From Spirochaetia bacterium (GTDB lineage Bacteria > Spirochaetota > Spirochaetia > DSM-2461): a stretch of DNA of 64,000 bases. A program made the translations under genes and the position numbers. The notes beneath the pieces were generated by a model that saw only the letters and a program-made list of their open reading frames with translations, ran no database searches and was not told the origin of the DNA. This document shows, piece after piece, positions 5,651 through 64,000 of this stretch (position 1 is its first letter; each line of letters opens with the position of its first letter). The stretch spans positions 192,001-256,000 of the forward strand of contig OY764216.1 of assembly GCA_963668315.1 (NCBI GenBank). Reading direction: 5' to 3'.

Positions 5651-5666
5651 GGTCTCCTCCAGACAT

Positions 5667-5721
5667 AAAAAAAGCTCCCCTGAGGGAGCCGCTCGTTCAC
5701 TTTAAAAACAGGACTCCCTCA
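5667..5721 (-). promoter_or_regulatory. pheST transcription attenuator (terminator/antiterminator)
   Basis: Terminator GCTCCC-TCAG-GGGAGC-T7 (5689-5667); competing 10-bp antiterminator TGAGGGAGTC (5721-5712) pairing with GGCTCCCTCA (5690-5681). Confidence 0.85.
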
Positions 5722-5784
5722 TTCACCTTTTCCAAAAAAGAAAAAAGAGATAAAAAAGCTGAAAAAGAAGGCTTTTCCCGTCAT
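5719..5784 (-). CDS. Phe-rich leader peptide MTGKAFFFSFFISFFFFGKGE (PheM analogue)
   Basis: 9 Phe in 21 codons, between a consensus promoter and the attenuator hairpins upstream of pheS. Confidence 0.87.
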   Translation of the reverse strand: MTGKAFFFSFFISFFFFGKGE

Positions 5785-5794
5785 ATTGCTATTC

Positions 5795-5822
5795 ATTATA
5801 GGCAAATATGATTTTGTGTCAA
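5795..5822 (-). promoter_or_regulatory. Sigma70-type promoter of the leader-pheST transcript
   Basis: TTGACA (5822-5817), 16-bp spacer, TATAAT (5800-5795). Confidence 0.75.
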
Positions 5823-55302: not shown

Positions 55303-58218
<2,916 letters not shown>

Positions 58219-58377
58219 ATTATCCTTTATCCCTTCTCTATCATCGCGATACCTACAAGCATTGAAACTGTACGCTTACCGGTATAACCCACACGGATTA
58301 GTAACCGAAAAACTTGGTATCTATCATCCTGCATATATCAGAATGTTTATTTAAAGATCAATGAGCTTATGCTCGTT

Positions 58378-58451
58378 TGGAGGTACAGGGACTCGAACCC
58401 TGGACCCCTAGAATGCAAATCTAGTGCTCTAGCCAACTGAGCTATACCCCC
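58378..58451 (-). tRNA. tRNA-Ala (TGC) in the 16S-23S spacer; CCA not encoded
   Basis: Cloverleaf GGGGGTA/TACCTCC with G3:U70, anticodon loop TT-TGC-AT, T-loop TTCGAGT. Confidence 0.96.
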
Positions 58452-58565
58452 AAATTATATAAAAAAGAGAAGCTTGAACAACGGGAACTTGTGCTGTTTC
58501 TGTCATGCCCAGTGTGTACAAATCACTGGGACTTTCGAATCAATTAAGATTCTGTACCTTTCTCA

Positions 58566-60108
<1,543 letters not shown>

Positions 60109-60419
60109 ATAATTAACTGTCCGAAGACAGTTACTAATCAATAGTTAAGTAGATCCACAACTAGGAATAGTTGCTTCTCAAAACAAAACATCAAAACAAT
60201 TTCTCATCTTGCTGACTTTGTTCGCCATTATATTAATAAATGGTCTTGGAATTGACAGAAACTATTTAAAAAACATTGCTATTCAAATTAAACAATACTC
60301 AAGTTCCCGTTATTCAAACTTCCCTTCTCTAAATCTTTTTCTAAGAACAAGTTGCCTTACCTCGGCAAGTACCGTGCCGCACCGCAGTGCTTCTGGACTT
60401 CCTCAGTGGCGCGAGCAGT

Positions 60420-60857: not shown

Positions 60858-61035
60858 TTTATGTGGTTAGATTGTTTTCGATATAACGGCTTCTTTGTCG
60901 TTATTAGATCGCTTTCAATATAACACCCTCCTTGTTGTTATTAGATCGTTTTCAATATAAGACCCTCCTTGTCGTTATTAGATCGTTTTCAATATAACGC
61001 CCTCCTTGTCGCTATTAGATCGTTTTCAATATAAC
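60858..61035. repeat. 37-bp tandem repeat, about 5 copies (first degenerate, last partial)
   Basis: Unit ttgtcgttattagatcgttttcaatataacgccctcc starting at 60858, 60895, 60932, 60969, 61006. Confidence 0.93.
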
Positions 61036-61143
61036 CCGGCCAGTCACCCTAAACGCCGCTCCATGTCCGCCTTCAGCGGGAGGGGCCGCCCAACCTCTTC
61101 CCATATACTGGTATATGACGGGGAAATTTCTTATATTGGAGGA

Positions 61144-62352
61144 ATGAAAGATTATGACTATTTGATTATCGGGGCTTCCAAGGCGGGAATGACGGCTGCG
61201 GAAACGCTGCGCGGGCATGACGGAGAGGCTTCGATAGTGATGATTAACGGGGAGGACAGGCTCCCTTATAAAAGAACGGGGCTGACGAAAAAGCTCGCGG
61301 CGGGATTTGACTGTGATGAGTTTGCCCTCCACCCTTTTGAATGGTACGGGGAGAACGGGATTGACCTGATAACCTCTCCCGCGGTGGTTCTGAACGGGAA
61401 AAACCGCACTGTGACGGTGGAGTCGGGGGAAGTTTTCAAGGCGGGGAAGATTCTGATTGCCACCGGGGCCGTTCCCAGGAAGATAGGTATTCCCGGAGAG
61501 GAGGAGATCTGCCATCTGCGAAGGGCCGATGAGACGGAAAAGATTCGCGCCGCTCTGAAGAAGGGCGACCGGGTTCTGGTCATCGGCCAGGGCGTGGAAG
61601 GGGTCGAGATGGCGGAGCAGCTCTCGCTGAGCGGACTGTCGGTGCTTTCCTTGAGCAGCAGTTCCCGGCTTATGTCCCGCTGGCTGGATCCTTTCCTTTC
61701 CCGGAGGCTGGCCGATCTGCTGGCGGCCCACGGGATAGAGCTTCTTTTCGACCGCACTCTCCTCTCCCTGACGCCGGGGGAGAAGAAGATCCTCGCGGTC
61801 CGGTCGCCGGAAGGGCCGGAAGAACATGCCGCCGATCTGGTTCTCGCGTCCATCGGCGTTCAGGCGGATACGGCGCTGCTGGCGACCCCGGAGGGGAAAA
61901 GTCTCCTCGGCAGGGGGGGCATTCGCTGTAATTCCTTTCTGCAGACGGACTGGGACGGGGTATTTGCCGCTGGCGATGTGGTGGATGTTCCCGGCGGATG
62001 GGCAACGGGACTTTGGCATTCGGCGGAGCACCAGGGCCGGATTGCCGCTTTGAATATGGCGGGGGTTCCCACGGAATGGACGAATCTTCCGGTCAGACTG
62101 AAGTGCGAGGTTTTCGGGGATTTCTACTTTTCCATGGCCTACGATCTGGTTCAGAGTGAAAAGGATGGGGAGGAAAAGACTCTCATCTGCGATGATGCCC
62201 GTTATCTCAGGGTTTTCTTCAGGGAAGGCCGCCTCAGGGGCGCCCTTATGCAGGGGATGAAGGCCTTTGCCAAGCCTCTGGCGAAGCTGGTCGTCGACGG
62301 TGGTACCGAAGAAGAACTCCGGGAGAGCCTCGGCAAAGGCGGTTTCTGCTAG
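61144..62352 (+). CDS. FAD-dependent NAD(P)H oxidoreductase (rubredoxin/ferredoxin reductase-like)
   Basis: IIGASKAG, LIATGA, IGQGVEGVE, QT....VFAAGDV. Confidence 0.85.
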   Translation: MKDYDYLIIGASKAGMTAAETLRGHDGEASIVMINGEDRLPYKRTGLTKKLAAGFDCDEFALHPFEWYGENGIDLITSPAVVLNGKNRTVTVESGEVFKAGKILIATGAVPRKIGIPGEEEICHLRRADETEKIRAALKKGDRVLVIGQGVEGVEMAEQLSLSGLSVLSLSSSSRLMSRWLDPFLSRRLADLLAAHGIELLFDRTLLSLTPGEKKILAVRSPEGPEEHAADLVLASIGVQADTALLATPEGKSLLGRGGIRCNSFLQTDWDGVFAAGDVVDVPGGWATGLWHSAEHQGRIAALNMAGVPTEWTNLPVRLKCEVFGDFYFSMAYDLVQSEKDGEEKTLICDDARYLRVFFREGRLRGALMQGMKAFAKPLAKLVVDGGTEEELRESLGKGGFC

Positions 62353-63644
62353 CGGTTCAGCATATAGGTCAGGGATTTTTTCAGGTTTTCCCAGATTGCC
62401 AGCCGTCTGGCATCATCGTTCTCCAGAAGGGTGACCCGGAACCCGGGAAGGTCGGAACAGAATCCGCTCAGGGGAACCGTGCAGAGCCCGGCTCCGCCCA
62501 GAAGGTTATACACCAGCTGTTTGTCCCGGGCGGCATCGGCGACCAGGGGGTCAAGATAGGAGGCGATCTCCGGCTTCAGGGGGAGAGGACGGAAATCGGC
62601 CAGCCTCTCCTGGTCCAGGAGCACGGTCAGATAGAAGGCGCCCTTGGGCAGATTGACCCGGACGCCGGGAATGGTATTGAGTATGTCAACCGCTTCCACG
62701 GCGCGGCGGCTGAACATGTCGGCCCGCCTGTCCAGGTGCTCCCGGTAGCGGGGATCGCCGAAGACGAGGGGGATGGACATCTGGGGAAGGCTCGTGGAAC
62801 AGACTTCCAGCCGCTTGGCATCGATAAGGGATTTAATGAAGCGGTCGAAGTTCGCATCCCGGCTCCGGTTGAAGATCTCCATCCAGCCGCAGCGGCCGCC
62901 GGGCCAGGGATACTCCTTGCTGATGCTGCGCATGGCGATTCCCGGAACTTCCCCGATAACTTCACTTAAATGGCAGGTTTCTGCGCCGTTGTAGACGATG
63001 TGGGCATAGGTTTCGTCGCACAGAACAAAAAGATCGTACCGGCGGGCGATATCCACGATGCCCAGAAGGACCTCCCGGGGATAAACGGCGCCGGTGGGAT
63101 TATCCGGATTGATGAGAAGAATGCCGGCGATGGCATCGTTATAGCGGACTTTATTTTCCAGGTCTTCCAGATCGGGCATCCAGTTGTTCTCGGGATCCAG
63201 CTTATAGGTGGTATGGTCGTATCCCGAATGGGCCGCTTCGGCACTGGACAGGGTGGAATAGGCGGGCGAGGGTCCGATAACCCGGGCTTCCCTTTTGAGA
63301 AAGGCGAACAGGGTGGATACGGCATCGCCCAGGCCGTTGAAAAAAATGATATCGTCCCCGGTGATTTCACAGCCGCCGCGCTGATTCACATGGTCGGCCA
63401 GAAAATCCCGGGTGTGGTAATCCCCTTCGGTTGCCGTGTAACCGTAACTGTGGCTCTGCGACGCCAGGTCGACAACGATATCGCGGATCCAGGGGGCCAC
63501 TTCCTCCCCCTTCTGGATGGGGTCGCCTATGTTTTCATAGGTCATTGCCACCCCCATGGCTTCCAGACGTCTGGCTGTGCCGACAATTTCCCGGATTTCA
63601 TAGCGGAGCCTGTCGGCCCCTTCCCATACGATGCTTCGTCTCAT
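62349..63644 (-). CDS. PLP-dependent class I/II aminotransferase, AlaA/AlaT (alanine transaminase)-like
   Basis: YEIR, ENIGDP, INPDNPTGAVY, DETY, SISK....PG.RCGW; RBS GGAGGAG before ATG 63644. Confidence 0.8.
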   Translation of the reverse strand: MRRSIVWEGADRLRYEIREIVGTARRLEAMGVAMTYENIGDPIQKGEEVAPWIRDIVVDLASQSHSYGYTATEGDYHTRDFLADHVNQRGGCEITGDDIIFFNGLGDAVSTLFAFLKREARVIGPSPAYSTLSSAEAAHSGYDHTTYKLDPENNWMPDLEDLENKVRYNDAIAGILLINPDNPTGAVYPREVLLGIVDIARRYDLFVLCDETYAHIVYNGAETCHLSEVIGEVPGIAMRSISKEYPWPGGRCGWMEIFNRSRDANFDRFIKSLIDAKRLEVCSTSLPQMSIPLVFGDPRYREHLDRRADMFSRRAVEAVDILNTIPGVRVNLPKGAFYLTVLLDQERLADFRPLPLKPEIASYLDPLVADAARDKQLVYNLLGGAGLCTVPLSGFCSDLPGFRVTLLENDDARRLAIWENLKKSLTYMLNR

Positions 63645-63683
63645 CTTCGTACTCCTCCGCCGTCTGTTCCGGGGCCGGGATAT

Positions 63684-63751
63684 AAAAAAACCGCGGTCCC
63701 CGATGGGAACCACGGCATGCTTTCATGTTAAACGGTCAGCCGTGCATTCCC
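63684..63751 (-). promoter_or_regulatory. Attenuator (terminator/antiterminator) upstream of the aminotransferase
   Basis: Terminator CCGTGGTTCCC-ATC-GGGGACCGCGG-T7 (63715-63684); antiterminator GGGAATGCACGGC (63751-63739) pairs with GCCGTGGTTCCC. Confidence 0.8.
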
Positions 63752-63819
63752 CTGAAAAGGGCCGCGGCCGCCTGGGCTGAGAGTTTACCGAATTGTGTAA
63801 TACGGATCATTTCTGCCAT
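63736..63819 (-). CDS. Ala-rich leader peptide MAEMIRITQFGKLSAQAAAALFRGMHG
   Basis: 5 Ala in 6 consecutive codons; ATG 6 nt after a TATTAT -10 box; stop adjoins the antiterminator strand. Confidence 0.75.
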   Translation of the reverse strand: MAEMIRITQFGKLSAQAAAALFRGMHG

Positions 63820-63825
63820 GGCCTC

Positions 63826-63854
63826 ATAATAACCGGAGCTTCGGGGCTGGTCAA
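63826..63854 (-). promoter_or_regulatory. Sigma70-type promoter of the leader-aminotransferase transcript
   Basis: TTGACC (63854-63849), 17-bp spacer, TATTAT (63831-63826). Confidence 0.75.
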
Positions 63855-63936
63855 GGGCGGAGAAAAGGCTATTTTATGGCGGTTCCGGAGTAAAACGGGC
63901 CTATGCGAAAAAAAAGAAGGGGTATATGATAGTCCT

Positions 63937-64000
63937 ATGCAAAATGTTCACACCACGGAAGAGAAACTTAACGCTCTCACCCATAATATCGGAGCGGGCC
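63937..64000 (+). CDS. Hemolysin III/PAQR family membrane protein, N-terminus only
   Basis: MQNVHTTEEKLNALTHNIGAG resembles the family start EE..N..TH..G. Confidence 0.6.
   Translation, partial: MQNVHTTEEKLNALTHNIGAG

Follow-up and report, generated by a model that had tools for sequence, protein, structure and literature searches.

Transcription attenuators governed by a leader peptide are known in their classical form from trpL, thrL, leuL and pheL of Escherichia coli and from hisL of Salmonella. An effect of alanine on the E. coli ilvB leader was reportedly described by Hauser and Hatfield in 1984 and disputed in a later paper. A candidate of the classical kind, built around a run of alanine codons, lies directly before an aminotransferase gene of the NCBIfam PRK06855 family in a Spirochaetia bacterium (GenBank assembly GCA_963668315.1, contig OY764216.1, positions 192,001 to 256,000); this whole stretch of 64,000 nucleotides (nt) is called the window, and positions are counted from its first letter. 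The spirochaete leader shares with the classical attenuators a short open reading frame (ORF) with tandem cognate codons, strands that can pair as 1:2, 2:3 and 3:4 ahead of a U tract, and a place directly before an amino-acid gene; it differs in that its codons are those of alanine, that it apparently has no Shine-Dalgarno (SD) site, that it is not in Rfam 15 and that part of the family has a possible fifth strand. Some homologues have six segments, presumably as in hisL. The classical architecture is summarised in bioRxiv 10.1101/834739, which, like the other papers cited below, is drawn on in part.

Alanine-rich leaders are already known elsewhere. In the portions of PMC8079986 used here, alaL of Streptomyces lividans is described as a 22-residue leader with 6 Ala before alaS; it was identified from RNA-seq, is called previously undescribed by its authors and is proposed as an alanine-dependent attenuator, the mechanism not being tested there. 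Both leaders are short Ala-enriched peptides with proposed alanine attenuation, however alaL controls the alanyl-tRNA synthetase rather than a biosynthetic enzyme, and its alanines are partly scattered, with a longest run of 3. The upstream ORF (uORF) of mycobacterial whiB7, termed an ‘Ala leader’, is an Ala-enriched transcription attenuator that responds to knockdown of the alanine aminotransferase aspC (PMC10274678, in part). It likewise controls an intrinsic terminator, is induced by alanine shortage and has aspC as a feedback output; the whiB7 uORF is longer and more diverse, senses many amino acids and antibiotics and acts via a transcription factor, whereas the spirochaete leader is a compact tandem run right before the enzyme gene. 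The statement in the initial annotation that no attenuator sensing Ala-tRNA had been described is too strong in view of these two systems. The mycobacterial polycysteine short ORFs (bioRxiv 10.1101/834739) are also leaderless, with a homopolymer run that senses its own amino acid, but they sense cysteine, act on translation initiation and have no intrinsic terminator; leaderless leader peptides are described in Streptomyces as well (PMC8079986). The spirochaete family itself was not found in print: the literature searched, with most subscription papers and supplements outside its scope, yielded no Ala-run leader before an aminotransferase or alanine-making enzyme, or in spirochaetes. A term search of the text available from PMC4833913 and PMC2965389 gave no mention of alanine or aminotransferase, although the supplementary lists of PMC4833913, which were not covered, could hold the ORF, and the portions of PMC13236596 and PMC11857589 consulted contain nothing relevant beyond whiB7 and ilvBNC.

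Sequence comparison and folding models make it very probable that the element ahead of the aminotransferase gene is a transcription attenuator of the classical, ribosome-mediated type, with charged tRNA-Ala as the quantity it gauges. Its parts, with the gene it is proposed to regulate, are as follows.

63826..63854, minus strand: sigma-70-type promoter, with the -35 box TTGACC at 63854-63849, a spacer of 17 nt and the -10 box TATTAT at 63831-63826 (10/12 consensus matches)
63736..63819, minus strand: leader ORF of 27 codons plus TGA, with its ATG at 63819, 6 nt past the -10 box
63760..63777, minus strand: sensor codons 15-20 (AQAAAA), doubling as strand 1 of the protector helix
63739..63751, minus strand: strand 2, the 5' arm of the antiterminator, within the last codons of the leader ORF
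63705..63716, minus strand: strand 3, used by both antiterminator and terminator
63690..63701, minus strand: strand 4, the 3' arm of the intrinsic terminator
63684..63690, minus strand: U tract of 7 T, 39 nt ahead of the aminotransferase ATG (63644)
63671..63679, minus strand: possible fifth strand 3' of the U tract, tentatively placed from folding against shuffles
63652..63658, minus strand: SD site of the aminotransferase
62349..63644, minus strand: pyridoxal phosphate (PLP)-dependent aminotransferase of 431 amino acids (aa), PRK06855 family, the putatively regulated gene

Coordinates and folding agree in placing the promoter, the 27-codon ORF with its AQAAAA stretch, the antiterminator and the terminator where the initial annotation had put them. 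The terminator, described there as 11 bp plus T7 about 40 nt before the ATG, is recounted as a hairpin at 63716-63690 with 12 pairs including a closing G-U (-21.1 kcal/mol) and a distance of 39 nt. The antiterminator pairs 63751-63739 with 63716-63705 through 12 bp with one bulged G (-19.2 kcal/mol with its extension). The protector had been proposed as TCAGCC with GGCTGA; this register is rejected, its pair probability being about 0 and its cost 5.4 kcal/mol (-19.3 forced versus -24.7 free), and the helix favoured in folding is one in which the Ala codons themselves (63772-63763) pair with strand 2. The leader ORF is presumably translated as leaderless RNA because its ATG sits 6 nt after the -10 box, and the terminated RNA is predicted to be about 136 nt long.

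The promoter alone is not beyond chance, since one promoter-like site is found in 62000-64000, the only one there, against 0.9 expected from shuffles; terminator-like sites number one in the same interval, with 2.5 expected by chance. A scan of the genome (5.6 Mb) gives 351 promoter-plus-start sites, of which 93 open an ORF of 10-45 codons right behind a TTGAC-type promoter, and the window leader is the single one with an Ala run of at least 3. The element as a whole exceeds chance through this genome-unique run together with its recurrence before orthologous genes.

Orthologues were collected as 70 loci of the class Spirochaetia after removal of 11 duplicates, L029 (truncated at its 5' end) and L111 (62 nt upstream); L labels denote loci in the analysis, and G000 is the genome of the window with C1 its contig. 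The leader is present in 56/70 loci, covering 19 family labels, although such counts are not independent of one another because the genomes are related; 52 are identified by a promoter rule and 4 lack the promoter pattern (L027, L037, L100, L126), while 3 further loci have degenerate leaders and 11 none. The presence of a run within the 56 leaders is circular, as they were selected for having one; the reading frame is a separate matter, since the promoter-led start and the GCN run were each located independently of frame. In all 52 promoter-defined loci, which have a similar promoter ahead of the leader start, the run lies in frame with that start, over nine different start-to-run distances of 30-54 nt. 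The four codons are used as GCC 105, GCA 104, GCG 80 and GCT 24 in the 56 leaders, giving 45 distinct run strings. Selection at the protein level is argued for by this use of all four Ala codons, the 45 strings and the weaker conservation of every other leader position; the kept frame speaks for translation of the ORF. The comparison of orthologous upstream regions which had been proposed as a check thus shows the Ala run in frame with synonymous variation, and the terminator pairs covary as described below.

That the GCN run is kept solely as an RNA strand for pairing with strand 2, the ORF being incidental or just coupling polymerase to ribosome, is considered very improbable. In folding, the 1:2 helix is indeed built from the Ala codons, GCT is rare (24/313), and L028, L057 and L058, from one genus, keep promoter, ORF, antiterminator and terminator with just 2-3 Ala codons (a fourth member, L030, keeps four); however, pairing cannot fix the frame seen in 52/52 loci, the third codon positions vary while the first and second stay, and the open interval of the folding model described below coincides with the Ala run. 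An origin as a riboswitch, T-box or protein-bound leader is scarcely credible. All such leaders have in common an intrinsic terminator and a pairing that competes with it, but no Rfam family accounts for the region, as the earlier reading had also required: a search of 62000-64000 up to E 10 returns 3 matches, none over the leader and all far under the gathering score, and in 12 homologous loci the leader is without any family match, one tRNA being found elsewhere. The first 40 nt of the leaders are moreover free to vary in sequence yet keep the frame.

Pairing with the anti-SD sequence at -5 kcal/mol or stronger is seen at 4/60 leader starts versus 60/60 aminotransferase starts. Outside the Ala run no position is conserved in more than 21/56 leaders.

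A rule-based search over 60 leaders locates the terminator in 57, four six-segment leaders being assigned the wrong hairpin by the rule. In an alignment of 30 leaders, pairing holds in 94.8% of terminator cells, versus 39.5-51.2% for slid partners, and 10/12 terminator pairs change on both sides, the structure used for this covariation having been derived from these related sequences themselves. The antiterminator was examined in 46 four-segment leaders, where strand 2 with its own strand 3 reaches -17.2 kcal/mol versus -13.7 for swapped partners; the own 2:3 pairing falls in the best tenth of swaps in 21/46 (28 for the terminator as control, 8 for a negative control) and beats 95 of 100 shuffles in 39/46.

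With the ribosome modelled as a block reaching 13 nt past the P site (16 nt was also tried for the window), the antiterminator of the window has a probability (P) of 0.97-0.98 when the ribosome stalls at Ala17-20 and 0.09 when it stands at the stop codon. Over 57 leaders, the median fraction of the terminator arm that is sequestered is 0.85 with the ribosome on the run, 0.20 at the stop and 0.55 for shuffled spacers. In RNA modelled before strand 3 is made (43 leaders), the free fraction of strand 2 is 0.24 while the ribosome stalls ahead of the run, rises to 0.97 when it stands on the last Ala and drops to 0 once it has moved five codons further; for the window the peak lies at codons 18-20. 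The protector forms in such early RNA, strand 2 being mostly bound in 41/43 leaders.

These results also bear on a general sensor of translation stress or antibiotics, in the manner of whiB7 or the erm leaders, in which any stall in the ORF would give read-through. Many amino acids and drugs elicit a response from the whiB7 uORF (PMC10274678, in part), and in the window's pre-terminator RNA at equilibrium strand 3 is sequestered at stalls on codons 10-13 by the Ala codons (0.92). This 1:3 pairing is not conserved, however, as it beats shuffles in 4/46 leaders and shows no preference for its own partner; direct pairing of the Ala codons with strand 3 was rejected as a conserved antiterminator on the same figures. 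In RNA still lacking strand 3, a stall ahead of the run leaves strand 2 bound, and the leader has no arrest motif because no residue besides Ala is conserved. A stress sensor of this kind is therefore regarded as improbable.

For the attenuator reading Ala-tRNA, the proposed course of events is as follows. Transcription would start at or beside the ATG at 63819, and a ribosome would load on the leaderless RNA. When Ala-tRNA is ample, the ribosome would reach the stop codon and cover strand 2, so that the 3:4 terminator forms, as the folding models predict, and an RNA of about 136 nt would be released. When Ala-tRNA is scarce, the ribosome would pause on codons 17-20, a position which in the modelled geometry covers strand 1 but not strand 2; the 2:3 helix would then form before strand 4 is made, by a presumed kinetic choice, and the polymerase would read into the aminotransferase gene. 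With no translation, or with a stall before the run, the Ala codons would pair with strand 2 and favour termination, as modelled for early RNA only. The enzyme would most likely form L-alanine from pyruvate, closing a feedback loop.

Several results weigh against this mechanism. At equilibrium, in the full RNA, the terminator wins at nearly all ribosome positions, the stalls at Ala17-20 included (P 0.98-0.99); the switch must therefore be kinetic, with 2:3 as a presumed kinetic trap. Longer untranslated RNA at equilibrium often sequesters strand 3 (0.92 in the window, median 0.75), and termination in untranslated RNA is therefore not assured. The 1:2 helix shows no partner specificity, falling in the best tenth of swaps in 4/46 leaders, and three of the 60 leaders lack a U-tract terminator under the rule. 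The six-segment form, in which an extra hairpin lies between leader ORF and terminator and two hairpins relay the signal, is found in 11 leaders (L016, L056, L100, L105, L114, L115, L118, L119, L121, L123, L124); in the model 6/11 of these switch and 5/11 switch little or not at all.

The reading put forward in the initial annotation, an Ala-read attenuator of an AlaA-like enzyme, stood up in every comparative and folding test run; its protector register and its claim of novelty did not stand, and we infer the alanine response and the activity of the enzyme.

The enzyme probably makes L-alanine from pyruvate, as its sequence suggests. The window protein matches the PRK06855 model (NF005334) over residues 1-429 with 616.5 bits (cut-off 443), and its best match in the PDB is E. 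coli AlaA (4cvq, E 2e-41); AlaA and Pyrococcus 1xi9, called PfAlaAT in PMC4094517, lead the remaining PDB matches by 13 orders of magnitude. Both AlaA and the window protein are fold-type I PLP enzymes, and of 14 positions compared in the AlaA active site 13 carry the same residue in the window protein and throughout the 97 aligned PRK06855 proteins. Four of these are Asp207, Tyr210, Lys240 and Arg248. The others are Tyr15, Ile17, Arg18, Ile40, Gly41, Tyr68, Tyr129, Asn179 and Arg378, all named in the portions of PMC4094517 used, where Tyr15, Ile17, Ile40 and position 276 are described as a steric filter for alanine, Arg18, Asn179 and Arg378 as serving substrate binding, and Tyr15, Ile17, Arg18 and Ile40 as residues for alanine selection and glutamate binding. 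Position 276 is the one that differs, being Val in PRK06855; the E. coli sequence used for comparison has Leu276 there, which PMC4094517 calls Ile276.

Against alanine formation stand an identity of only 28% between the window protein and E. coli AlaA, which lies outside the separate PRK06855 family, and the score against the alanine aminotransferase model PRK08363 (NF006230), which at 169.9 bits does not reach the cut-off of 534; the latter shortfall lowers membership in that family, not the ability to work like an alanine aminotransferase. The same genome also encodes an alanine dehydrogenase as well as an AlaA-like paralogue that is closer to AlaA, and no Ala run precedes either gene. It is conceivable, then, that the attenuator reads Ala-tRNA while the enzyme is no glutamate:pyruvate transaminase, using another donor (e.g., valine) or having alanine as a proxy for pyruvate or nitrogen; this alternative, which is compatible with the regulatory mechanism and does not exclude it, is doubtful but by no means negligible. 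Beyond the low identity, it is favoured by scores under the cut-off of every named-substrate family, by a long branch that sets PRK06855 apart in the tree from both AlaA and the genome's own AlaA-like paralogue, and by the literature searched, in which no characterised or assayed PRK06855 member was found. It is opposed by the lead of AlaA and 1xi9 among the PDB matches, by the invariant plug residues, and by the genome's other leaders, in which the run names the amino acid of the pathway.

Exact-sequence look-up of the enzyme and of the leader peptide matched neither. No Ala run was found upstream of alaS in the window's genome; alaS there lies in a short open frame of 604 aa (L192, G000:C1:3050141, plus strand), with a separate match to the C-terminal model at C1:1862726. 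Among 14 control genomes, the PRK06855 family is present in one, Methanocaldococcus jannaschii.

The genome's other leaders emerged from a scan of its 126 pre-gene terminators; short ORFs with a codon run precede 19 gene starts in it, and for most of these run and gene show no evident match. Four besides the alanine leader do match their gene (Thr/asd, Ile-Leu/leuA, Phe/pheS and Val/valS), and their starts likewise lie close behind TTGAC-type promoters. These leaders, with a further one before an HMGL-like gene, are as follows.

Window 5660-5822, minus strand: Phe-rich leader ORF (start near 5784-5796), terminator and U tract before pheS (5650, minus strand), a pheM-like attenuator
L186, G000:C1:466043, minus strand: leader of 24 codons with a five-Thr run and terminator before asd
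L187, G000:C1:872797, minus strand: Ile/Leu-rich leader and terminator before leuA
L188, G000:C1:2931215, plus strand: valS with a Val-rich leader and a terminator ahead of it, an instance of control by leader peptide
L189, G000:C1:4111466, minus strand: Phe/Tyr-rich leader and terminator before an HMGL-like gene (Pfam PF00682)

The last of these suggests that the HMGL-like gene is linked to aromatic amino-acid metabolism. A covariance model built from 30 alanine leaders was run on the window's genome and 151 genomes of the class; with 22 candidates scored per genome, matches of at least 47 bits number 20, comprising 19 aminotransferase leaders and L146. Among 29 further matches inspected for Ala leaders ahead of other genes, L146 alone has one. 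Weak matches in other Spirochaetia (L160, L179, L166, L167, L169-L171) show His codons before hisG, Trp codons before anthranilate synthase and Ile/Val/Leu codons before acetolactate-synthase-like genes. From the matched leaders in this genome and its relatives, the class uses codon-run attenuators in which, in these cases, the run names the pathway.

The broader proposal is held with a little more than even confidence: the enzyme would make alanine, PRK06855 thus serving alanine synthesis, and its gene would stand directly behind a compact classical attenuator specific for alanine; Spirochaetia would possess a whole series of such attenuators (Ala, Thr, Leu/Ile/Val, Phe, His and Trp), leaderless or nearly so, and some members of the family may use the fifth strand as an additional lock on translation. 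The mechanism itself is unsurprising to specialists. Cells contain alanine in abundance and have several redundant enzymes for producing it; an enzyme under a dedicated Ala-tRNA gauge would therefore be singled out as the supply that these bacteria adjust. The leader further provides a sequence-based prediction of function for an aminotransferase family in which no assayed member was found, and its five to seven tandem codons within about 136 nt make it a cleaner system than whiB7 for the study of alanine sensing. Natural experiments on a single gene are available too, in the shape of losses, of degenerate runs, and of forms with four or six segments.

The possible fifth strand (63679-63671) pairs with strand 4 in read-through RNA of the window at -16.3 kcal/mol, with 1 of 100 shuffles as good; in the model it can otherwise pair with the ribosome-binding region of the aminotransferase, and its pairing raises predicted SD access from 0.49 to 0.81. 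The shuffle test is passed in 21/46 leaders. A general translational second layer is unsupported across the family, as SD access rises by more than 0.2 in 10/46 leaders and falls in 2, with medians of 0.50 and 0.44. In L003 inspection by eye shows the 22 nt past the U tract to repeat most of the terminator exactly in inverted orientation, and the window has a decayed form of this repeat; such a stretch may lock either the read-through fold or the ribosome site.

The promoter rule finds no leader in 15 AlaA-like paralogue loci and none in 28 PRK06855 loci from other classes or phyla, one of which (L064) has an Ala4 ORF without a U tract; L064, L107 and L108 carry Ala leaders with the usual hairpin and no U tract, and modelled control of the ribosome site is not clear in them. 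In a quick tree every leader-bearing gene falls in one group of 75 rows (support 87), which includes 16 rows labelled leader-less. Five of the 11 loci with no leader (L002, L018, L020, L021, L110) have a promoter 6-7 nt ahead of the aminotransferase ATG, so that the gene itself looks leaderless there; we infer that absence in these five, which include the window's nearest relative on the tree, represents leader loss. The leader is seen in Gracilinema caldarium (L044), and named records group the window's family with Oceanispirochaeta. In family f41, from another class, the PRK06855 gene occurs in 75/75 genomes, and the five inspected (L090-L094) are without an Ala leader.

Two variants deserve mention. 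A short form, in which the stop codon lies at most one codon past the Ala run, occurs in L015, L017, L019, L027, L103, L109, L112, L113 and L125; stalled and terminating ribosomes are only a few codons apart there, and ribosome release may therefore matter more. Assembly G548 holds two Ala leaders, L101 (before the aminotransferase, L059-like) and L146 (at a contig end, near-identical to the L047 leader), and the enzyme at L047 is the closest relative of that at L101; the pair could be binning noise or leader exchange.

The aminotransferase gene is probably transcribed alone because it ends head-on against an FAD/NAD(P)H oxidoreductase-like gene (61006-62352, plus strand; no NCBIfam cut-off reached), with which its end overlaps by 4 nt. 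On its other side a divergent gene for a haemolysin-III-related membrane protein (Pfam PF03006; 63937-64000, plus strand, running into L001) starts 118 nt from the leader ATG. Further along the window, about 55700-60300 on the minus strand resembles what we take to be a ribosomal RNA (rRNA) operon, and the ORFs listed there are presumably spurious read-outs of rRNA.

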